Source of the DNA: Candidatus Peribacter riflensis
GTDB taxonomy: Bacteria; Patescibacteriota; Gracilibacteria; Peribacterales; Peribacteraceae
Length of the DNA: 32,000 bases
Assembly (NCBI GenBank): GCA_001430755.1
Contig: CP013062.1
Coordinates: 810,001-842,000, forward strand
Direction: 5' to 3'
In this document: positions 334-32,000 of the stretch, piece by piece
Layout: the number at the start of each line of letters is the position of its first letter
Position numbering within the stretch: position 1 is the first letter of the stretch
Translations under genes and position numbers: made by a program
Notes under the pieces: model-generated
What the model was told of the DNA's origin: nothing
Database searches by the model: none
What the model saw: only the letters and a program-made list of their open reading frames with translations

Positions 334-2618
334 AGGCAGCCGACACCCCATCGCACGCCGAAAAAAAATCCGGGCTGATCCTGGGTTCCCTCAATGAGCC
401 GCAGCGCAAAGCCGTGGAACACACCAAGGGGCCGCTCCTCATTCTGGCGGGGGCAGGCAGCGGCAAAACCAAAGCCCTCACACACCGCATCGCATACTTG
501 ATCGCACAGGGTGTTCCTCCGTGGCAGATTTTGGCTGTGACGTTTACAAACAAGGCGGCGAAAGAAATGAGATCGCGCATCGAGAATCTGCTGCACCTGA
601 CGGAAGGCGAGGACCCCGCCGCATGGGGATCGAAGAGCGCCCGTCTGCCCGTGATGGGCACGTTTCATTCTATCTGCGCGCGGATCCTGAGAAAGGATAT
701 CGAAAAGCTGGGACGCGACCGTTCATTCGTGATCTACGACAAAGACGATCAGGAGAAACTGGTGAAGCAGGTCCTCAGAGAAATGAAGGTGGAAGAGGCG
801 GAGCTCAAGCCACGTGCGGCGCTCTCGTACATCGGCCGCTTCAAGTGTGAGGCCCTCTCACCTGCAGAGGCGATAAAAGATGCCACCACCCCGCGCATGG
901 AAACGGTGTGCCGCGCATTCGCGGCCTACGAAAAAGCCCTGCGCACGGCCAATGCGCTGGATTTCGACGACCTCATGCTGGAGGTGGTACGCCTGTTCCA
1001 CGAAGTCCCGGAAGTCCTCGACCGCTATCAGGAGACCTGGCGGTACCTCAACGTGGATGAGTACCAGGATACGAACCACGCACAGTACCTCTTCACGACC
1101 CTGCTCGCACAGAAGTACAGAAACCTCTGCGTGATCGGCGATCCGGACCAGTCCATCTACGCGTTCCGCGGCGCGGATATCCGCAATATCCTGGAGTTTC
1201 AGCGGGAGTACAAAGACGCCACCGAGATCAAACTGGAGCAGAACTACCGCTCGACGCAGTTGATTCTCTCGGCTGCGGATGCCGTGATCGCGGCAAACCC
1301 CAACCGCCCGAAGAAGAAGATGTGGTCCGAGCGGAAGGAAGGGCCGCAGATCCTGGTCCATGAGGTGGAAAATGAACGCAAGGAGGCGGAGGAGGCACTC
1401 AAGCGCATCACGATGCTCAAGAAAGAAGGCGTACCGTTCAATGATCAGGTCATCCTCTACCGTACCAATGCACAATCGCGCCTGTTCGAAGAATCATGCA
1501 TGCGCCAGGGCATCCCCTACCGCATCGTGGGCGGCGTGAAATTCTACGCACGCAGAGAGGTGAAAGACGTCCTCGCCTACCTGCACGTGATTCTCAATCC
1601 CGCAGATGTCATTTCGCTGCTGCGCATCATCAATGTGCCGACACGCAAGATCGGTGAGACGACCCTGGAGCGCATCCACGCCTGGAGCAGCATCAACAGC
1701 ACATCACTCTGGTCAGCACTGGGCCGGGTGGACGAAATTCTGGACTTGAACGAAGGAACGAAGAACCGCATCCGCGAATTCGTGAAGATCATCACAGATC
1801 TGCAGGGCGACATGCGCCGCCTCGCCGTAGCGGATCTCACGGTGCGCCTCTTGCAGCGCATCGGTCTGGAAAAATGGCTCAAAGATGACACAGAGGAAGG
1901 CGAGGAACGCTGGCAGAACGTGGAGGAATTGCTCTCGGTCATGCGCAAGTATGATCAACTCGATCCGCAACTCTCCCTCACGAGTTTTCTGGAAGAAGTG
2001 GCCCTGGTCTCGGAGGTCGACCGCCTCGCGGAGCTCAAAGACGACGCCATCACCCTCATGACCGTGCACCTGTGCAAGGGGCTGGAATTCGAACACGTGA
2101 CGATCGCGGGCTGCGAGGAGGGCATTTTTCCGCACGCTTCGAGCCTCTACGACCGCGAGCAGCTGGAGGAGGAACGCAGACTGATGTACGTGGGCATGAC
2201 CCGGGCCAAAACGCACCTGACCATGCTCTTCACCCGCGCGCGCATGCTGTGGGGAGAGACCAAAGCGAATGCCGCGAGCCGGTTTTTGGATGACTTGCCC
2301 GATAAGGTGATTGAGCGGCGCAGCGATTCGCTCTTGAGCACCTTCGCCTGGGCGGCGGAGCGCGGGCAGCAGGAAGCGCTCACTGGAGGGCATATCGAAC
2401 CCTACCGTCAGGAAAAACACCTGCACGTGGAGTTCAATCAGGATACGGCACTCGACGGAGTGAATCAGGAACCCATGACGGAAGGCACGCGCGTGGAGCA
2501 TCCCAAGTTCGGCCAGGGAACCGTGACCGCCGTGCGCGGCGGGGTGGTGGATATCGCCTTCGATGCAGGCCAGAAGAAGAGCTTCGCTCTCTCTATCGCG
2601 CCGCTGAAGATTCTCTGA
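330..2618 (+). CDS. pcrA: ATP-dependent DNA helicase, UvrD/PcrA family
   Basis: Superfamily-1 helicase motifs read in the translation: GAGSGKT (Walker A), DEYQDTN, QNYRS, TVHLCKGLEFEHV, LMYVGMTRAK. Length is typical for the family. Start is GTG at 330; the next in-frame Met lies inside the conserved core. Confidence 0.93.
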   Translation: MKAADTPSHAEKKSGLILGSLNEPQRKAVEHTKGPLLILAGAGSGKTKALTHRIAYLIAQGVPPWQILAVTFTNKAAKEMRSRIENLLHLTEGEDPAAWGSKSARLPVMGTFHSICARILRKDIEKLGRDRSFVIYDKDDQEKLVKQVLREMKVEEAELKPRAALSYIGRFKCEALSPAEAIKDATTPRMETVCRAFAAYEKALRTANALDFDDLMLEVVRLFHEVPEVLDRYQETWRYLNVDEYQDTNHAQYLFTTLLAQKYRNLCVIGDPDQSIYAFRGADIRNILEFQREYKDATEIKLEQNYRSTQLILSAADAVIAANPNRPKKKMWSERKEGPQILVHEVENERKEAEEALKRITMLKKEGVPFNDQVILYRTNAQSRLFEESCMRQGIPYRIVGGVKFYARREVKDVLAYLHVILNPADVISLLRIINVPTRKIGETTLERIHAWSSINSTSLWSALGRVDEILDLNEGTKNRIREFVKIITDLQGDMRRLAVADLTVRLLQRIGLEKWLKDDTEEGEERWQNVEELLSVMRKYDQLDPQLSLTSFLEEVALVSEVDRLAELKDDAITLMTVHLCKGLEFEHVTIAGCEEGIFPHASSLYDREQLEEERRLMYVGMTRAKTHLTMLFTRARMLWGETKANAASRFLDDLPDKVIERRSDSLLSTFAWAAERGQQEALTGGHIEPYRQEKHLHVEFNQDTALDGVNQEPMTEGTRVEHPKFGQGTVTAVRGGVVDIAFDAGQKKSFALSIAPLKIL

Positions 2619-2624
2619 GCAGAG

Positions 2625-4292
2625 CTACTGCCAGTAGTACGTTCCCTGCAGCTGTGATTCGGTGAACGGCACCCACGAGAAGCTCGTCGTGCCATCGGTC
2701 CACGTAAGAGCTCCGGCGGAGGAAACGGATCCTGCCGGCGTGATCGAGATCTGCAGTCCCGCACTCTGCGAGGCCGAAGGAATGGTGATATCGCCCCGGA
2801 GGGTGATGACGCGCGTTCCGCTCGTCACGGTTCCGACTCCTTCGGGAATCGCCGCACAGACAATGGAGGTTCCGACAACGGAACAATTCGTGCGATCGGT
2901 CGATCCGTCGGCGCCCAACGTTACATTGGCAAGCGTCACTCCGCCGCTGGTTCCCAGCGCAAAGGTGATATCGGTCACGAGCAGATCCGCGCTGCCATCG
3001 CCGCGGCCGCCCTGCAGCCTCCACTGGCCGATCGTGCGGCCGACCCCGCCCACGAGCGCGTCCTCTCCCGGACCGGCATTCGCAATGGACGTGAAGGTGG
3101 AACGCGCGGTCTCGAAGGCCTGATAGGTCTCGGTGGAGGAATCGCTGTACGAGCTGTGACTCCAATCACCGCGGCCCTCAATCGTGAACGTATCAATCTC
3201 AATATCTTCTCCGCTCTCGCCGCCCTGATCGAAACTGCGGGTGATGGCCCGCGCATAGACCGATACCTCCTCTCGGCGGGCTGCTGCAATGAGCCCGCTC
3301 GCCGAGTGGAGTGTGAAAGAAGCAGGATCGTCCGTATCGCGGGAGGCACCTCCCAGGTACCGGCCGTCAGCCGATGCGTACAGACGCACCTGATCAACGG
3401 ATGGCACGGCGGCGGTGAACGTCACCGTGATATCCTCCACGGTGAAGGGTTCCGAGTTATTGAAGATCTTGGCGGCTCCAAGAATGGGTGAAACCGTTCC
3501 AAGACGCAGAAAAGAGGGCGTCTGCGAGAAATCCGGCCCGGGATCGGTGGCGAACGAGGATGCCGAGGAGGCAGAAGAAACGGAGGAAATCGATGAGACC
3601 GATGAAGCCGACGAAGAGCGACCAGCCGAAGAGCGGGACGAGGAAGAAATGGAGGAAGAAGATGCTTCCCCGCTCTGCACCGCGCGGAGTGCCATGAGCT
3701 CCCCGCGGCTCCAGGCGAGGAACGAAACGGTGATCTGCGCTACCTCACCGCGCGTGAGCGCATGGGCAGCATCGACCCCCGGGAGCGCGATGTCCTCGGC
3801 CACTGCGGCTGCAAGGAACGGCTCATACCACTCATCGGATTGGATGTGCATCTGCGGCACATCGAATGCGAGAACGAGAATCTTCACAGCTTCGGCATAG
3901 TTCACCGTGCGCTCGGGCACGAACAGCCACTGCTCGCGCGGAACGGTGGAATCGCCATTGCCCTGCACGAAACCGAGCTCTCTGGCCAGACAAACCGGCG
4001 CTGCATACCACTGATCCGGCTGGACATCGGGGAAGCACATCTCGGCTGGGAGCGGCGATGTATAGCCAAGAACCATCATCAGCACCTTGGTGAACTCGGC
4101 ACGGTTGACGTGTTGCTCCGGGCGGAATGTGCCGTCCGGGTACCCCTGCAGTATCCCCTCTTCCGTGAGTGCGCTCACTGCCACCGCCGTCACACGATCA
4201 CGCGGGGCATCGGTGTACGGAAGATGCAACGTGTCGTAGGCAAAAGCGGTAAACGGGAACAGGCCGATGAGAAGAATGAAAATCTTGCGCAT
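2625..4292 (-). CDS. secreted cell-surface protein with three N-terminal SLH repeats, a Ser-rich linker and a beta-rich C-terminal region
   Basis: Signal peptide MRKIFILLIGLFPFTAFA. SLH-like repeats are present (for example EEGILQGYPDGTFRPEQHVNRAEFTKVL, plus two further W-Y...A repeats). A long poly-Ser linker (SSSSISSSSRSSAGRSSSASSVSSISSVSSASSASS) follows. The C-terminal half has no recognised domain. Confidence 0.8.
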   Translation of the reverse strand: MRKIFILLIGLFPFTAFAYDTLHLPYTDAPRDRVTAVAVSALTEEGILQGYPDGTFRPEQHVNRAEFTKVLMMVLGYTSPLPAEMCFPDVQPDQWYAAPVCLARELGFVQGNGDSTVPREQWLFVPERTVNYAEAVKILVLAFDVPQMHIQSDEWYEPFLAAAVAEDIALPGVDAAHALTRGEVAQITVSFLAWSRGELMALRAVQSGEASSSSISSSSRSSAGRSSSASSVSSISSVSSASSASSFATDPGPDFSQTPSFLRLGTVSPILGAAKIFNNSEPFTVEDITVTFTAAVPSVDQVRLYASADGRYLGGASRDTDDPASFTLHSASGLIAAARREEVSVYARAITRSFDQGGESGEDIEIDTFTIEGRGDWSHSSYSDSSTETYQAFETARSTFTSIANAGPGEDALVGGVGRTIGQWRLQGGRGDGSADLLVTDITFALGTSGGVTLANVTLGADGSTDRTNCSVVGTSIVCAAIPEGVGTVTSGTRVITLRGDITIPSASQSAGLQISITPAGSVSSAGALTWTDGTTSFSWVPFTESQLQGTYYWQ

Positions 4293-11333: not shown

Positions 11334-11363
11334 TTGCTGTCGAAAAGCACTCGCTTCTACAAT
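11334..11363 (+). promoter_or_regulatory. candidate promoter TTGCTG-18 nt-TACAAT
   Basis: Hexamers read directly from the sequence. The -10 lies 24 nt upstream of the ATG at 11388. Confidence 0.4.
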
Positions 11364-11387
11364 GAGAGAAATTTCCCTCACCACTCC

Positions 11388-12512
11388 ATGAGAAAATCAT
11401 TTCTGCTCACTGCCTGTGCGGTTGTGTTTGCCGTGCCGCTCATCGCTCTCGCGGCCTTCAGCCGACCGAGTGACGTGCTCTTCGGTCTCGAGAATGCGGG
11501 CGGACCGCGATCCTTCGAAATAAAGCTCTACTCCACAGTGGGTGAAGAGGAGGACCTCGTGCAGTTCTTCGTCACCGGCAATGGCATGACGGAGGGAACC
11601 ACCCCTCAGGACCTCAAGATCTCCCTTCACCTGAACGTGTCTGCAGTGACGACGGAAGGAACGATCTCGGGCGTAGGTGATGTGATCGGTTACCACGAGA
11701 AGGTCTTCTTCAGACTGAGCAACGTGAAGGTCTCTGGACCCATAATCACTGCAGGCGACCTCGCCGATATCGAGACCATGAGCCGGGAGATGCGGGGACG
11801 GTGGTTCGTGGCGGAAGCCCCGCAGACAACCGATTCCCCCTCGTGGGACGAAATGGCACGGGAACTCGACCTGCCGTTCTCAGCCGCACAGATGCGCGAA
11901 GGAATCGCCCGTGTGATCGATGCTGTATTCGCGATGGAGCACTCCCGCTTCCTCGCCGGTACTACGTACACCCTCACACTCAAGCCCAACTTCATCGTGG
12001 AAGGAATCCGGGCGGCGGAGGGGTGGCTCACGGAAGTGAACCAGGACAGTGCGGCAAACATGCCGGAGACCGGCGATGCCGATTTGCAGGAGTTCGAAGA
12101 CCTCTTTCGCCAGAACCTGACCGTCCGCCTGAAGGTGGATATGTCCGGTGACGGGGCATTCCGCTTCGCACGCTCCTACGTGACGCTATCACTCCCCGAC
12201 GAAGCGGTCGCTTTGTCGCTCGAAGCCTCCATGCAACAGCGTCCGGCACCGGTCTACGTGCAGATTCCCGCGAACGCCACGCCCGTGGAGGAACTGCTGG
12301 GCTTCTCGCTGATTCCCGAAGGTCTCTTCGACGGAGGATCGGACATGCCAGAGACCATCGACGACGGAGCTTGGCCGGACCTGTGGCCGGAGAACGAGTG
12401 GAACCCCTGCGACATGATCACGGACGAGGTGGACCTGCGCGACGCGCGCCTGGGGGATTGCCCGGTCACGCGGGAATCGCGCCGCAGTCTGCGCGAGCGC
12501 CTACAGGACTAG
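11388..12512 (+). CDS. secreted hypothetical protein (374 aa)
   Basis: Start is placed at MRKSFLLTACAVVFAVPLIALAAF, a signal peptide. No recognised domain in the mature part. Confidence 0.55.
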   Translation: MRKSFLLTACAVVFAVPLIALAAFSRPSDVLFGLENAGGPRSFEIKLYSTVGEEEDLVQFFVTGNGMTEGTTPQDLKISLHLNVSAVTTEGTISGVGDVIGYHEKVFFRLSNVKVSGPIITAGDLADIETMSREMRGRWFVAEAPQTTDSPSWDEMARELDLPFSAAQMREGIARVIDAVFAMEHSRFLAGTTYTLTLKPNFIVEGIRAAEGWLTEVNQDSAANMPETGDADLQEFEDLFRQNLTVRLKVDMSGDGAFRFARSYVTLSLPDEAVALSLEASMQQRPAPVYVQIPANATPVEELLGFSLIPEGLFDGGSDMPETIDDGAWPDLWPENEWNPCDMITDEVDLRDARLGDCPVTRESRRSLRERLQD

Positions 12513-16706: not shown

Positions 16707-17081
16707 ATGAAACCGCCCAGGAACCCCCGGTCGTCCTGCCCGATCTCCTGCGTCATCGAAAAGCTCTCAAAGAAGTGGAATTTGCTGATCCTGGAGTCTT
16801 TCCGGAAAGGAAAGAAACTCCGCTTCTCGGAGATCATTGAAGAGCTCCCCACGATCAATTCCCGCATTCTCTCGCAACGACTCACTGAACTGGAGCGGGA
16901 AGGATTGATCGTCCGTACAGTGGCACAGGCAAAGCCGATCACGATCTCTTACGTCATCACTGAGAAAGGCATGGCTCTGCAGGATATTTTCGAACACTAC
17001 GCCGTCTGGGTGAGAACGTGGGGCATCGCGTCTGTTTGCCAGAACTGCTATGTCCTGAACAGGCCACAAAAACGCTCCTGA
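16707..17081 (+). CDS. HxlR family winged-helix transcriptional regulator
   Basis: CPISCVIEKLSKKWNLLILESFRKGKKLRFSEIIEELPTINSRILSQRLTELEREGLIVR is the canonical HxlR-type HTH. Size is typical at about 120 aa. Confidence 0.88.
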   Translation: MKPPRNPRSSCPISCVIEKLSKKWNLLILESFRKGKKLRFSEIIEELPTINSRILSQRLTELEREGLIVRTVAQAKPITISYVITEKGMALQDIFEHYAVWVRTWGIASVCQNCYVLNRPQKRS

Positions 17082-17588: not shown

Positions 17589-17613
17589 AGTGAGAAATAC
17601 CAATCACCTCCCT

Positions 17614-18000
17614 ATGGTCCTGCGCACCGCCCGAACGGCCTTCATCCTCGCCGGATTCGCCCTGCTCATCTCCACAGCCGGAGACGTGCACACACTCCTG
17701 GTGCGTGCCGATCTCACCGGACAGGGTTCAACCGTTCTCAAGCAGGAGGAACTCACGTCTCTGTCCACACTGGAACTGCGGCAGCACTTGAGCGCCCCCG
17801 AACTCAATAAGCGCAGCGTCTCGGCCGCTATCGCCCTCGGGAGCATCTTCCTCTTCCTCGGATTTGGACTGCACGCCTTCCTGGTGCGCAGAAAGAAGAC
17901 AGGTGAACAGGCTGTGCAGGTACACGCAGCGCCCGCACGCAGAGGACGCGATACCCGCAAGATGGACCGGTGGTTTTTATGGATGACAGTAAGAATGTAA
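17614..18000 (+). CDS. small membrane protein, hypothetical (128 aa)
   Basis: Two hydrophobic segments (AFILAGFALLISTAG and AAIALGSIFLFLGFGLHAFLV). The track start (GTG at 17590) sits 1 nt after the TATAAT hexamer, so the first ATG at 17614 is preferred. Confidence 0.45.
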   Translation: MVLRTARTAFILAGFALLISTAGDVHTLLVRADLTGQGSTVLKQEELTSLSTLELRQHLSAPELNKRSVSAAIALGSIFLFLGFGLHAFLVRRKKTGEQAVQVHAAPARRGRDTRKMDRWFLWMTVRM

Positions 18001-18112
18001 TAACACCTACCCGGATCACTCCTCCGGCAACAAGGGAATCATAGAGACTTTTTCCGAATCTCCTCTCCCCTTGGGAGAGGGTAGGGTGAGGGATTCCACA
18101 GGAACGCCATGT

Positions 18113-18143
18113 AAAAAAGGCGGATCCAAAGAGGAGAGCCGCC
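18113..18143 (-). terminator. intrinsic terminator after the Gly/Cys mini-ORF
   Basis: Minus strand reads GGCGG-CTCTCCTCTTTGGAT-CCGCC followed by TTTTTT. Additional inner pairs are possible. It starts 25 nt after the mini-ORF stop. Confidence 0.6.
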
Positions 18144-18168
18144 CTCTGATGGGGAGTGGTTCCGCGAC

Positions 18169-18225
18169 TTAGCAGCATCCGCAGCAGCCGCCACAACCAC
18201 CACCGCCTTTACCACCACCGAACAT
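18169..18225 (-). CDS. 18-codon Gly/Cys-rich mini-ORF: MFGGGKGGGGCGGCCGCC
   Basis: Hand-translated. It is the only ORF fully enclosed between the CIRCE-overlapping promoter and the terminator. No Shine-Dalgarno is present, and in GC-rich DNA this composition could arise by chance. The transcript may instead be a non-coding RNA. Confidence 0.3.
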   Translation of the reverse strand: MFGGGKGGGGCGGCCGCC

Positions 18226-18256
18226 AAGTGAGGGGGGAAGAAATGAGAACAGGCAC

Positions 18257-18285
18257 AGTCTACCAAAGAAGATTGGCACTCTCAA
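18257..18285 (-). promoter_or_regulatory. sigma70-like promoter TTGAGA-17 nt-TAGACT overlapping CIRCE
   Basis: Minus strand: -35 at 18285..18280 lies inside the CIRCE element, and -10 is at 18262..18257. Confidence 0.5.
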
Positions 18286-18299
18286 GTAGTGAGTGCTAA
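18273..18299. promoter_or_regulatory. CIRCE element (HrcA operator)
   Basis: TTGGCACTC-N9-GAGTGCTAA versus the consensus TTAGCACTC-N9-GAGTGCTAA: 17 of 18 positions match and the 9-nt spacer is exact. Confidence 0.8.
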
Positions 18300-18336: not shown

Positions 18337-19188
18337 TTAGAGCGGATGCTTCTTGCCCAAGCCATCTCTGTGGTACTTTCCGAACTCCGTGACCTGCCGG
18401 GCCAGATCGTTACTCACCACCGGACCATCGACGCACAGGCGGATGCCCAGTGCATCCACCGCGCAGTTGCCACAGAGACCGAACCCGCACTTCATGTACC
18501 GCTCCAGCGACAGCAGGCAGGGCACACCGGCTTTTGCAGTCATATCGGATACAGCGAGGAGCATGCGCTCCGGCCCGCAGGCGAATACCTGGTCAAACGC
18601 ACGAGCGGTTGACCCTGAGCGAAGTCGAAGGGTCTTTCCCTTGAGTAATTCTCTTAGAAGATCAACGTTGTATCCCTTGTGCCCCTGCGACCCATCGTCC
18701 GTCGCCACGTGGAGCGTGGTCCCCGGCAGAGAGCCAAACGCATCCAGATAGAGCAGATGCTCTTTGGATCTGGCGCCGATGATGACATCCAGAGTGCAAC
18801 CGTCTTGCACGGCCTTCGTGGCGGCGAAGAACATGGGCGCCGCGCCGTAGCCGCCCGCCACGAGGGCAAGGTGCTGCTTGGGCTTCCAGGTGTACTGCGT
18901 GCCGAAAGGACCGCGCAGCCCCACCAGATCCCCTTTCTTAAGCGCAGCCAGCTTCTTGGTGGTATCGCCGACGGCGAAGAACGTGATCTGGATTTTTTTA
19001 CCGTCATCGTTGGCCACGCTCATGGGCACTTCATCCACCCCCGGCACCCACACCATGATGAATTGGCCGGGCTGCGCCCCAAGTGACACGGCGAAGGTGA
19101 AGGTCTGCACGTGTTCCGTCTCTTTCTTCACGCTCGCAATGCGGTAGGTCACAGGCAGCCGGTGATTCCCGCAACAGCCGCAGCTCAT
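18337..19188 (-). CDS. pyrK: dihydroorotate dehydrogenase B electron-transfer subunit (FAD/2Fe-2S)
   Basis: Ferredoxin-reductase-like fold blocks (GQFIMVWVPG, LVAGGYGAAPMFF) and a C-terminal 2Fe-2S motif CGFGLCGNCAV...C. Start is the ATG at 19188, overlapping the pyrD stop (ATGA). Confidence 0.9.
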   Translation of the reverse strand: MSCGCCGNHRLPVTYRIASVKKETEHVQTFTFAVSLGAQPGQFIMVWVPGVDEVPMSVANDDGKKIQITFFAVGDTTKKLAALKKGDLVGLRGPFGTQYTWKPKQHLALVAGGYGAAPMFFAATKAVQDGCTLDVIIGARSKEHLLYLDAFGSLPGTTLHVATDDGSQGHKGYNVDLLRELLKGKTLRLRSGSTARAFDQVFACGPERMLLAVSDMTAKAGVPCLLSLERYMKCGFGLCGNCAVDALGIRLCVDGPVVSNDLARQVTEFGKYHRDGLGKKHPL

Positions 19189-27566: not shown

Positions 27567-30500
27567 TCACCACTGATGCTTCATGTTCGCGAGAATGCGC
27601 CGGTAGGGGCTGGAGAATACCCCGCCCGTGACGACACCTTCTGTCATTAAATTATTGAGGAGTGTGTTGAGGAATATTGATTTATTCTCCGCATCGCGAT
27701 AGGAAGGCCATAGTTCCTGATGAAGATGGCTCAGATACTCTCTTCCAGTCCATCCGTTGCCTCCGCGGTACTGCGCCATGCGTAGAATTCGACCAAGCTC
27801 TTCGTGACGGACACTCTCGACAAATGCGGGATCCCGGGCGCGCGGGTGGCCGGCAAGATTCATAGGCGTCACAAGAACGTCACGGGTGAGTTGCTGGTCC
27901 TCACGGGTGAAATCGGAAGAAGGTTCCGCCCGCAACGTATCCAGGGTGACGGTAAAATTTTGGCTCTTGCCACCCTGCAGCACCTGGAAACGGAAAGGTG
28001 TCGGTTCAATTTCCGGCGCAGATGAAGACATTGCACTGGCTGTCTGGATATCGCTGATTTCAACGTCGGCATCGCCGAAGCGGCCGCGGAACAAGCCGGG
28101 GGCACGTCTCATCTGATGATGCTGGTCATCGACCTGATACTCGCCGGGAACGTATCCGACCATGCCAGTGTGAATCTGAGCGAGCGCGGCTGTGCGCAAC
28201 TGCGTCTGCGCGGCAATGGTCTCTGCACGCTTGGGGGCTTCTTTCTGCCACGTATCGCTGGCAGTCTGCTGCGCCTGCTCCGCCTGTTGCGCACGCTGTC
28301 GCTTCTCCTCCTCTGCCTTTTGCCTCCGTTCCATCAGAGCTTTTTTGGCCTCCTGCAGCAGTGTTTCCGCTCCCGGACGGGCGAGGAATTCCTGCAGTGT
28401 AAGCGGCCGGTCCAAGCCATCGATCAGCCCGACATCGGGCATGCTCGACAGACGGAATGTGCCCGCACCGCGCTGCAGCACGCTCACCTTGCCGGAATCG
28501 AGATCGCCGAAGATGTAGGTGGCGAGGACACCGGTATGATTGCCCCCGAGGTCCTGTCTCTCCAGAAGCACTGCCTGCAGACGATTGGTCTCGAAGCCCG
28601 ATGCCCCGGCCTTCGGATACTTGATGAGCCGGGCAAGCCGACGATCCGGGTGGCCAGCGCCGCGGGTAAACACAACCGGTCCATTCGCGCCGTAGAGTTC
28701 GTCGTACGAAGGAGAGCGACGCAGAGCCGCTCCTGAAGCGGTCTTGGCGGAAAGCCGATCGAGCCCTTCGGTGATGGAGGTGCGTGCCGCGTCATAGCTG
28801 GCGGCATCGCGCGAGCGGCCCACCAGATCGAGGATGCTCGTGTTCTGATGCACCGGCGGCTCGCCGAGCTTTTCGGCGATCATGTTGGCCGCATGGAAGG
28901 GGGCGGCATAGAAGAGAGCATCCAGCTGATCGACAGCCGATGCCTGGTGTGTGAGGCGCGAGAGCGACCAGTCGTTCCAGCGCCTGCGCTTATCCGCCTC
29001 TTCTTCGCCAAGTGTCTGTGCGGTGAGTTGCTTCAGTTTGAGCTGCATTGCAGGATCATCCACAAGACCAAACAGCTGGTCCCGGTTACCGAAATCAATG
29101 GCAGCCGAAAGCCCGGAAACCGAGGATGGTGAAACGACGAACAGCCGCTCGTTCTGACGCACTTTCTCTGCACGCGTACCGCCACTTGTTTGATTGAGCT
29201 GTCCAAGCAGCGCCTGCAAGGAAAGCTCAGCGCGTGTTTTGCCGTTATTCTGCGCGAGGAGCTCCGGCGGAATCTCATTCAGCCGCCGCCCGAAGACCTG
29301 TACGCCACCCATTGCGTTCACCAGCCGTACCAAGCCCGCATGACGTTCGTCTGTTTCGGCAATCGTCCCGAGGAAGGAGCGATATTCCAGATACCGTTTC
29401 TCGCGGACATGCTGGAGATAGCATACGGATGCACGCCGCATCGCTTCGCGGATATCCATGAGTGTTACATTCGTCGCCGTAAGTCCCAACGCGTTGACGC
29501 CGATATCACCGCTCTGTGCAGCCTGCAGTGGAATATCCTCCGCACGTGCCGCAGCGAAAAGTTGCGCAGAGAACATCGGCAGAACGAACTGCGCGAAATC
29601 TTCGCGATAGAACCGATCGAGAACATCGGGCGACCACATGCCGCCGACAGATTCGGCGAACACCTCGGGGGCATTCTGCATGAGTTCGCGGACAAAAATG
29701 CTGTAGAGCATCCGCTTGCGGATTTCGGGCTTGTCCTTTGATCCATCTGCTGCAGAGTCCTTCGAAGACGGGAAAAAATCCGAGAGCATCCAGCTCGAAC
29801 CACGTTCGAGCCAGTCATACTCCCCCTCCCCCGTCGCAGCCTGAGATCCGAGAATGCAGAGAAGCCAGGGAGGGGCATCTGCAAGGAACTCACGCATCTT
29901 TGACTGTTCCCACGCGTTGATGCCCGTGCGAATGGCAACCTCCACGCCGACGACCACAAGGCCTGCCGGACCCGTGAACGCTTTCGCACCCATGAGGATG
30001 GTGGCTGCAAGCCCGGCTGCCGTATTGGCTGTGCGGAGCTTCTGCGCCATCTCCCGATCGTCAAAAACACGTCCGACATTGGAATCGATCACTTTATTCA
30101 CGCCCTGCAGGCTGACCTCCACTCCGGTAACTTTGTGCTGGTACCTGCCATAAGCCAATCGCGTGAAGTGCGGGTTACGGTCCAGATCCTGGTGTAACTG
30201 GTCGATCACTCCGCGCACATGCTTGTCCGCTGCATCGCGCTGCTTCTCGATCTCACCGATCTCCTGATAGTCAGCATAGAGTGCCAGGCCCTGCAGGCCG
30301 ACTCCCCCCACGTACGCCGCACGGGCGAACGGCGATGCTGATCGCCAGCTATTCATCCAGTGCGCATGCAACCGCCGGGCAGGATAGGTGGCTCCGGTGA
30401 GGAGCGTATTGCCGGCTGCCGCCGTCCGATCGACGAGCCCGACGTTCATCAGCGGCCGTGCACCGAGGCGGACGGCTTTCCGCAACGACGATTCTGTCGC

Positions 30501-32000
30501 CACCCGGCTCGCCCTGCTGATGAGTTCATCGAGCTGCACAATCGCCGGGTCCCCGACGGGAAGCTTCGCCTTTTCGGCCTGTAGGAAATCGACGAGCTGC
30601 TCCCATGCCCTCCTGGAATCAAGCGGGCGCATGGTCCGCACGAACTGGTCGCAGAGACGGTTCCCCATTTCAGCCGTCGCAGGCTGTTCCACGAGACCGT
30701 TAATGATTTCGTCCATCTTCTTGATGACTGCATTGGCATCGCGCACGGCAGATGGGCTTGCGCGCCAGGGATGCAGAATCGTGTTATCGAGTGTCCGCAT
30801 GAAAATATTCCTCGCCTGTGTTCTCCCCGAGGCATCTCCAAGACGGCGGAGCACACGATATGGACGTGTGGAGAGGTGGGAGTACATCTTGGCGGCATAG
30901 GCAGCGACCCCGGTGAGGGGATAGGCGATCCAGGGATGTTCCCCGTAGATCGTATGCAGAACACCGGCAGTTTCGCGCGCTGTGGCAGCGGCGGCTCCGA
31001 GAGCGGCCTTCGCACCTGCAACAGTGAGGAAACTGATGGCCCGCTTGGCCTTGTCGAACACCTCCGGCGGCACGTCGACGAAACTCTTCTGCCACTCATC
31101 GGCACCCTCGGCAAGGGCCAATCTGCCGATGCGGTCGAGCATCGTCGTATCGCGGTAGCCATCCACGCTCGTGTCGTTCTTTCCGACATAGCGGAAAATT
31201 TCCACCTGAATCAGCAAAAGCCCGGTGGGATTCCCCTTTTGCACCATGCGCTGGTAGAGGAACAGGCGAACAGCCTGCGCCAGCGACATGCGATCGAGCA
31301 GTATTTCGGATACATGCTGGCGGTTTTCCGCCTCGCTGCCGCTCCAATCCCGATCGGGGAATAGCTTATGGAAGAACGGGAGGATGAAGGAAGGTGTTTC
31401 GCCCTCAATGGTATTGCAGACATCCGCCAGAAGCTCGCGCACGGGATCGCCTTCCTGGCCGGCCTGAGTGGACTTCTCCTGCGCCATCTTCTCCAAAAAT
31501 CCGTGCACCGACGTTTCACCCTCGCGCACAGCCACTTCGACCACGTGCATCGGATCAATATCCTTGAATCGCTCAGTGAGGACACCGGGCTTCTTGCGGT
31601 AGGCATCGATTTGCGAAGTGAGCTCGTGGCGGACGGCACCGCTGCGAATGAAGAGCGCTTCCGGCTTGAGCGCGTCTTTCAGATTTTCCACTCCAGTGAC
31701 CGCCACGGTCTCCACCACCATCGCCAGAGATTCCGCGCCGCGCGCAAAGGCATCGACGTACTCATCCACGGTCAGCTCGCCGATTTGCTCTTCAGTGAGG
31801 TCGGGGCGCAACCGGTGCAATTCTTCCCGCGCTTTCCAGCACACTTCGATCACATAGAACGCGGCCGCCTCGCGCCGGTCGAAATCTTCATTGAGAACCC
31901 GAACGCGATTGCGATCAATGGCAATGTCCCGCACGCCCTGCGTGCTCTCGTCGACGTGTACGCATTCGAAGAAATCTTTCACTTTGCGCTGCTTGTTGTG
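27567..32000 (-). CDS. giant hypothetical protein, at least 1471 aa, N-terminus beyond the window
   Basis: A single uninterrupted minus-strand ORF. The frame stays open from the GTG at 31982 to the window edge. No catalytic motif recognised. Hydrophobic segments cluster around aa 315-716, and a charged coiled-coil-like stretch spans about aa 1205-1265. Confidence 0.7.
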   Translation of the reverse strand, partial: HNKQRKVKDFFECVHVDESTQGVRDIAIDRNRVRVLNEDFDRREAAAFYVIEVCWKAREELHRLRPDLTEEQIGELTVDEYVDAFARGAESLAMVVETVAVTGVENLKDALKPEALFIRSGAVRHELTSQIDAYRKKPGVLTERFKDIDPMHVVEVAVREGETSVHGFLEKMAQEKSTQAGQEGDPVRELLADVCNTIEGETPSFILPFFHKLFPDRDWSGSEAENRQHVSEILLDRMSLAQAVRLFLYQRMVQKGNPTGLLLIQVEIFRYVGKNDTSVDGYRDTTMLDRIGRLALAEGADEWQKSFVDVPPEVFDKAKRAISFLTVAGAKAALGAAAATARETAGVLHTIYGEHPWIAYPLTGVAAYAAKMYSHLSTRPYRVLRRLGDASGRTQARNIFMRTLDNTILHPWRASPSAVRDANAVIKKMDEIINGLVEQPATAEMGNRLCDQFVRTMRPLDSRRAWEQLVDFLQAEKAKLPVGDPAIVQLDELISRASRVATESSLRKAVRLGARPLMNVGLVDRTAAAGNTLLTGATYPARRLHAHWMNSWRSASPFARAAYVGGVGLQGLALYADYQEIGEIEKQRDAADKHVRGVIDQLHQDLDRNPHFTRLAYGRYQHKVTGVEVSLQGVNKVIDSNVGRVFDDREMAQKLRTANTAAGLAATILMGAKAFTGPAGLVVVGVEVAIRTGINAWEQSKMREFLADAPPWLLCILGSQAATGEGEYDWLERGSSWMLSDFFPSSKDSAADGSKDKPEIRKRMLYSIFVRELMQNAPEVFAESVGGMWSPDVLDRFYREDFAQFVLPMFSAQLFAAARAEDIPLQAAQSGDIGVNALGLTATNVTLMDIREAMRRASVCYLQHVREKRYLEYRSFLGTIAETDERHAGLVRLVNAMGGVQVFGRRLNEIPPELLAQNNGKTRAELSLQALLGQLNQTSGGTRAEKVRQNERLFVVSPSSVSGLSAAIDFGNRDQLFGLVDDPAMQLKLKQLTAQTLGEEEADKRRRWNDWSLSRLTHQASAVDQLDALFYAAPFHAANMIAEKLGEPPVHQNTSILDLVGRSRDAASYDAARTSITEGLDRLSAKTASGAALRRSPSYDELYGANGPVVFTRGAGHPDRRLARLIKYPKAGASGFETNRLQAVLLERQDLGGNHTGVLATYIFGDLDSGKVSVLQRGAGTFRLSSMPDVGLIDGLDRPLTLQEFLARPGAETLLQEAKKALMERRQKAEEEKRQRAQQAEQAQQTASDTWQKEAPKRAETIAAQTQLRTAALAQIHTGMVGYVPGEYQVDDQHHQMRRAPGLFRGRFGDADVEISDIQTASAMSSSAPEIEPTPFRFQVLQGGKSQNFTVTLDTLRAEPSSDFTREDQQLTRDVLVTPMNLAGHPRARDPAFVESVRHEELGRILRMAQYRGGNGWTGREYLSHLHQELWPSYRDAENKSIFLNTLLNNLMTEGVVTGGVFSSPYRRILANMKHQW

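Follow-up and report, generated by a model that had tools for sequence, protein, structure and literature searches.

The closest described system to the locus considered here is the HrcA-CIRCE class I heat-shock regulon, in which the CIRCE palindrome, with a 9-N9-9 geometry, controls the chaperone operons groESL and hrcA-grpE-dnaK-dnaJ and, in some bacteria, hsp20. A second point of comparison is provided by very small metal-binding proteins, such as the Gly/Ser/Cys-rich copper metallothioneins of the Neurospora crassa type, which appear to be only 25-26 aa long, and the bacterial metallothioneins SmtA and MymT. A third is the group of Cys-X-Cys peptides that mimic protein disulfide isomerase, which are laboratory designs, and a fourth is the microcin B17 precursor McbA and other linear azole-containing peptides. 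In our analysis a CIRCE operator in Candidatus Peribacter riflensis was found not in front of a chaperone operon but in front of a conserved, unannotated mini-gene for a glycine/cysteine peptide. The product of this monocistronic unit is neither a chaperone nor a protease, and in our literature searches for CIRCE or HrcA with small or cysteine-rich proteins, and for Peribacteria with HrcA, we found no precedent for it. The regulatory mechanism is of a known kind, while the peptide family is undescribed and lies below the size limit of gene callers. It comes from the Candidate Phyla Radiation, where almost nothing is known about regulation.

Anatomy of the locus downstream of pyrK

The window analysed is a stretch of 32 kb of the Ca. 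Peribacter riflensis genome, and the first-pass annotation of it had proposed an orphan CIRCE operator controlling a self-contained mini-gene for an 18-aa Gly/Cys-rich peptide. Every element was found where that annotation placed it, and the features of the locus and its neighbours are as follows.

18337..19188, minus strand: pyrK (dihydroorotate dehydrogenase electron-transfer subunit), the upstream neighbour on the same strand and the syntenic anchor, not part of the cassette
18273..18299, minus strand: CIRCE operator (HrcA binding site), reading TTAGCACTC-actacttga-GAGTGCCAA on this strand
18280..18285, minus strand: -35 hexamer TTGAGA, straddling the CIRCE spacer and right arm
18257..18265, minus strand: extended -10 element, TGgTAGACT
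18226..18250, minus strand: predicted 5' leader of 25 nt, CU-rich and without a Shine-Dalgarno sequence, the transcription start near 18250 being inferred from the -10 position
18169..18225, minus strand: micro-ORF for MFGGGKGGGGCGGCCGCC (18 aa, 5 Cys), from ATG at 18225 to TAA at 18171..18169
18113..18147, minus strand: intrinsic terminator, AGAGGGCGG-loop-CCGCC followed by U6
17590..18000, plus strand: convergent gene for a 136-aa protein with no Pfam match and hydrophobic stretches, probably a membrane protein as judged by eye from the translation

The CIRCE site, TTGGCACTC-N9-GAGTGCTAA at 18273..18299, matches the consensus TTAGCACTC-N9-GAGTGCTAA at 17 of 18 positions and is the only match with up to 3 mismatches in the 32 kb, whereas shuffled sequences are expected to give 0.02 matches and only 2 of 100 shuffles gave any. 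It lies 37 nt downstream of the end of pyrK. The minus-strand promoter, TTGAGA (18285..18280), 17 nt and TAGACT (18262..18257) with an upstream TG, was recovered by a consensus scan, which also picked up a plus-strand promoter-like site inside CIRCE (TTGGCA-18-TAAATT) that is part of the palindrome and points antisense into pyrK. The terminator hairpin is present in the predicted fold, although a simple terminator scan missed it because its loop is longer than 8 nt, and it probably also ends read-through from the pyr operon. The position of CIRCE over the -35 differs from the commoner position downstream of the -10, between the -10 and the start codon, but it is one in which a bound repressor would occlude the -35. 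No chaperone or hrcA gene lies in the window. The convergent gene is a conserved neighbour with no evidence of a functional link. As this gene follows the terminator, there is nothing to attenuate, and the superficial resemblance of a run of Cys and Gly codons followed by a terminator to a leader-peptide attenuator is very unlikely to reflect such a function.

The window corresponds exactly, with an offset of window coordinate + 810086 checked on pyrK, pyrD, pyrG and the HxlR gene, to the complete genome RIFOXYC2_FULL_PER-ii_58_32, whose published annotation (PMC4736985, supplementary file 2) lists nothing between pyrK and the next gene. According to that table, on which we rely here rather than on a search of the genome itself, hrcA (gene 682, 756335..757045, K03705, E 5.4e-59), groES/groEL, dnaK and grpE are all present at separate loci. 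The presence of hrcA, together with the comparative data below, supports the interpretation offered in the first-pass annotation, that is, that the mini-gene is a new member of the HrcA regulon. We therefore suggest, with moderate confidence and in the absence of expression, binding or proteomic data, that under non-stress conditions HrcA sits on the CIRCE palindrome and blocks RNA polymerase, and that when misfolded proteins accumulate HrcA lets go, so that a transcript of about 138 nt (about 18250 to 18113) is made and the 18-codon ORF is translated into MFGGGKGGGGCGGCCGCC.

Conservation of the cassette in Peribacteria

Syntenic loci were reached through PyrK homologues of 82% down to 65% identity, and six of seven carry CIRCE, a -10 box, a CU-rich leader, a Gly/Cys micro-ORF and a terminator directly after pyrK. 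Relatives thus keep CIRCE together with the same kind of micro-ORF, and not next to some other gene that has been lost from this genome. A pattern scan of one genome per species (185,579 species) for a CIRCE core, CGC and a Cys-stop gave 33 loci, of which the 11 from Peribacteria/Peregrinibacteria are true cassettes, while the 22 from other phyla are ordinary CIRCE sites with no comparable ORF. As far as these scans show, the family is therefore restricted to Peribacteria. In a PyrK-anchored sample of 80 metagenome loci, which was not selected for either CIRCE or the peptide, 29 of 52 loci with at least 58% PyrK identity have the mini-gene within 2.5 kb, and none of the 28 more distant loci has it. 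CIRCE precedes the ATG in 24 of those 29, by 45-60 nt in all but one (81 nt at locus L048, where the scan picked an inner ATG); here and below, L followed by a number denotes an individual locus. The other five loci have the mini-gene without CIRCE, which indicates that HrcA control is usual but not obligatory.

In all we collected 37 distinct cassettes, 33 of which carry CIRCE 45-60 nt before the ATG, and a canonical terminator follows every homologous ORF. Across these 33 the arms of CIRCE carry 1.73 bits per position and the spacer 0.56, and the site always overlaps the -35. Two layouts are seen, one in the clade of the window, with TTGAGA or TTGCGA inside CIRCE, and one in other clades, with TAGACA across the right end of CIRCE, and a TAnAcT-type hexamer lies at a conserved distance in the homologues. 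As a positive control, CIRCE was also found in the promoter of an hsp20 gene in four of four Peribacteria lineages examined (L018, L125/L126, L127 and L128, of which L127 is from the same MAG as cassette L003). There the -10 sits inside the CIRCE spacer and a CU-rich leader follows. This is consistent with CIRCE being used at a classical heat-shock gene in the lineage. The alternative that the ORF is a chance one in a G-rich spacer next to a relic CIRCE might be suggested by its shortness and low complexity, and by the rarity of stops in A-poor sequence. It is, however, contradicted by the comparative data, as the 37 cassettes keep operator, promoter, ATG, Cys block, stop and terminator at PyrK identities down to 58%, while the same scan gave only two spurious Gly/Cys ORFs in about 0.8 Mb of sequence, counting both strands.

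The cassette also behaves as an autonomous unit. The MAG STB_179 has two copies on one contig, each with its own CIRCE, promoter and terminator, one of which follows a pyrK-like gene while the other follows pyrB and a HAD-like gene and lies upstream of a trehalose-phosphate synthase. The single exception among the seven syntenic loci, the pyrK copy at L011, lies on this same contig and has no cassette after it. In L082 and L086 the whole cassette is inverted between the same neighbours, and an ORF of 147 aa similar to the convergent gene of the window lies beside it. In L054 and L063 the peptide gene is kept but CIRCE is replaced by another palindrome, TAGTTTA-N4-TAAACTA, inside the 18-nt spacer of a TTGACa/TAtAcT promoter, with a cold-shock protein gene lying divergently upstream, and L075 shows no operator. 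The conserved entity is therefore the peptide gene.

Coding signature and RNA structure

A promoter followed by about 138 nt and a terminator is also what would be expected of a small RNA, the alternative product offered in the first-pass annotation. The CU-rich 5' segment, which is conserved in composition, might for example pair with purine-rich targets, and GG runs, which are retained whatever the third base, might form G-run structures. The absence of a Shine-Dalgarno sequence does not argue against translation, as none of 18 ordinary genes around the cassette has a convincing one. Their starts are preceded by CU-rich leaders or by a TATACT box a few bases upstream, which implies leaderless mRNAs, and the leader of the cassette is therefore the ordinary start context in this genome rather than an anti-Shine-Dalgarno-like seed. 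In seven codon-aligned close pairs, 33 of 49 nucleotide differences fall on third positions, with 26 synonymous and 11 nonsynonymous codon changes (P about 1e-6 under uniformity). As the sequence is low-complexity (GGN/TGY) and the pairs are not fully independent, this P value is only indicative, and an RNA-level constraint on GG runs could mimic part of the signal. However, L055 and L056 encode the identical 9-aa peptide with two synonymous changes, while their leaders and 3' regions are only 78% and 73% identical. Furthermore, TGY occurs 135 times and TGG once in 559 codons, which a purely RNA-level preference for G runs would not produce, and the ATG, the reading frame and a stop right after the Cys block are kept across lengths of 9-29 codons.

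No consistent structure beyond the terminator was found among the 37 homologues, and the transcript of the window folds no better than shuffled sequences (z = -1.1). In a search of Rfam, at gathering thresholds and in permissive mode, only a tRNA-Glu was found elsewhere in the window and only noise in the region itself. Folding of the 37 homologues at 10, 25, 37 and 45 C shows the AUG region to be about 50% unpaired at every temperature, with no consistent occlusion, which argues against an RNA thermometer in which the C-rich leader would pair with the G-rich ORF. A pure small RNA is therefore disfavoured and we regard it as unlikely, although a dual-function RNA is not excluded.

Possible chemistry of the Gly/Cys peptides

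The 37 peptides are 9-29 aa long, for example MIGGGKCGC, MFGGGKGGCCG, MTGPGCGCGFGPGCGSC and MFSFGGGGCCGHHGGGCGCGN, and consist of 47% Gly and 24% Cys, with 2-6 Cys per peptide. A Cys-Gly-Cys core is present in 29 of 37, the remaining eight having CC, CxC or CxxC-type pairs, while 26 of 37 end in Cys and 34 of 37 have a TAA stop. Six peptides of at least 20 aa gave no Pfam hit at E up to 10, and their only NCBIfam hit was a negligible PID-CTERM match (E 9.7, 6 bits against a cut-off of 26). The Gly/Cys/Ser composition may recall the microcin B17 core, which is turned into thiazoles and oxazoles, but a RiPP precursor of this type is very unlikely. There is no leader region, as the Gly/Cys block starts at residue 3 and some members are only 9 aa, no cyclodehydratase, dehydrogenase or radical-SAM neighbour was found in the window or in the syntenic loci, and 'YcaO' does not occur in the part of the published annotation that was examined.

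The function of the peptide can thus only be inferred from its closely spaced thiols, that is, CGC and CC motifs on flexible Gly spacers. The most likely role is that of a stress-induced chelator or buffer for thiophilic metal(loid)s and other thiol-reactive agents that damage proteins, in effect a minimal metallothionein-like or low-molecular-weight thiol peptide. This is favoured by the CC and CXC motifs, by His, Asp or Asn next to Cys in several members, by growth through module duplication (for example IDGGSCGC twice), and by a composition that resembles that of the 25-aa Neurospora copper metallothionein. It would also fit the induction of the chaperone response by thiophilic metals, and stress inducibility may have a parallel in yeast CUP1, which appears to respond to heat-shock factor. 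On the other hand, ten of the 37 peptides have only two Cys, too few for a metallothionein-type cluster, for which 7 or more are typical, there is no sequence match to a metallothionein family in Pfam or NCBIfam, control is apparently by a proteotoxic-stress repressor rather than a metal sensor, and no metal-sensing regulator or metal-handling gene is consistently linked to the cassette.

Alternatively, the gene and its HrcA control may be as described but the peptide may be a thiol-disulfide exchange catalyst or redox buffer, made alongside the chaperones. We rate this possibility somewhat below that of a chelator or thiol buffer, and it remains tentative. The synthetic CGC tripeptide has E0' = -0.167 V, close to protein disulfide isomerase, and catalyses disulfide exchange, and designed 24-residue CXC (CRC/CWC) alpha-helix peptides rescue yeast lacking PDI (bioRxiv 10.64898/2026.01.27.701630). 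Unlike those designs, which include CXC-linker-HDEL peptides targeted to the oxidising endoplasmic reticulum, the peptides described here are natural and lack a sorting or export signal, and the cytoplasm of these presumably anaerobic organisms should rarely need disulfide isomerisation. Eight of the 37 also lack CXC, and His, Asp and Asn next to Cys, like module duplication, look more like metal ligands. Membership of a chaperone regulon would nevertheless fit a folding helper, and no gshA was found in the part of the published annotation that was examined, although the absence of glutathione genes is not thereby established. We speculate that Peribacteria may make ribosomally encoded thiol reagents, catalytic or stoichiometric, as a gene-encoded substitute for glutathione-type thiols or as a peptide 'mini-foldase'. 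If so, this would be a stress effector class smaller than any known protein chaperone or metallothionein, and would bear on how genome-reduced bacteria lacking glutathione-type pathways buffer thiol stress and on whether very short peptides can act as catalysts in cells. The shortest members, MIGGGKCGC and MFGGGKGCGC, consist of little else than the Cys-Gly-Cys core.

Translation starts and promoter layouts

At the starts of the 18 genes that we read in the window, genes of this Peribacter genome have essentially no Shine-Dalgarno sequences. Their starts are preceded by C/U-rich leaders, or by a TATACT box only 6-8 nt upstream, which suggests leaderless mRNAs. The Peribacteria hsp20 genes have a TTGACT -35 followed by a CIRCE whose 9-nt spacer contains the -10 (TACACT, TATACT or TATAGT), a layout that differs from the one at the Gly/Cys mini-gene. 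This arrangement was found at four hsp20 loci, at the following positions:
L018, 6381..6407
L125, 2445..2471
L127, 2442..2468
L128, 2442..2468

In relatives, hsp20 (with CIRCE) lies upstream of the TPR-protein gene, with purD and/or a PRMT-like methyltransferase gene on its other side. In this genome the place between purD and the TPR gene (window 11334..12512, plus strand) is occupied by a gene for a 374-aa protein with no Pfam match.

Variation of the cassette among relatives

In two lineages, represented by loci L054 (3800..3840) and L063 (2560..2600), the Gly/Cys mini-gene has no CIRCE. Instead the palindrome TAGTTTA-N4-TAAACTA lies inside an 18-nt promoter spacer, and a cold-shock-domain protein gene is transcribed divergently just upstream. 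Two cassette copies were found in one genome, on the same contig (JAQTSD010000002.1), at the loci L016 (5311..5490) and L033 (1172..1360), encoding MTGGGKGGCGGCCGCC and MTGGDKGGGCGGGCCGCC. One follows pyrB and a HAD-like gene, and L033 also has inverted CCCTAA-like repeats between the pyrK stop and CIRCE. In two further loci, L082 (3381..3498) and L086 (about 1790..1876), the cassette is inverted relative to pyrK, so that the mini-ORF is convergent with pyrK, while it keeps the same flanking genes.

At locus L071 (4758..4980) CIRCE is retained, but the sequence after it is replaced by an insertion rich in GCTCGTT-type repeats, and no mini-ORF follows within 200 nt. This may be a disrupted cassette. 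In an AT-rich relative (L069, 3285..3545) a different Cys-rich ORF is found after pyrK (MSDGHCNCLGGGRCNCKKCNCS), which has no CIRCE and is flanked by long inverted repeats of the AATACTGGAGT type.

Other features of the window

The following features were also identified in the window:
2625..4292, minus strand, a gene encoding an SLH-domain protein
16707..17081, plus strand, a gene for an HxlR-family regulator, 1.1 kb from the cassette
18039..18100, a G/C-rich inverted repeat (CTCCTCTCCCCTTGGGAGAGGGTAGGG)
27567..31982, minus strand, an ORF of more than 1,471 aa

The inverted repeat lies between the stop of the convergent 136-aa gene and the cassette terminator. It has no T-run, and the Rfam hits there are weak and non-significant. 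The long ORF runs off the window end and has no Pfam match.
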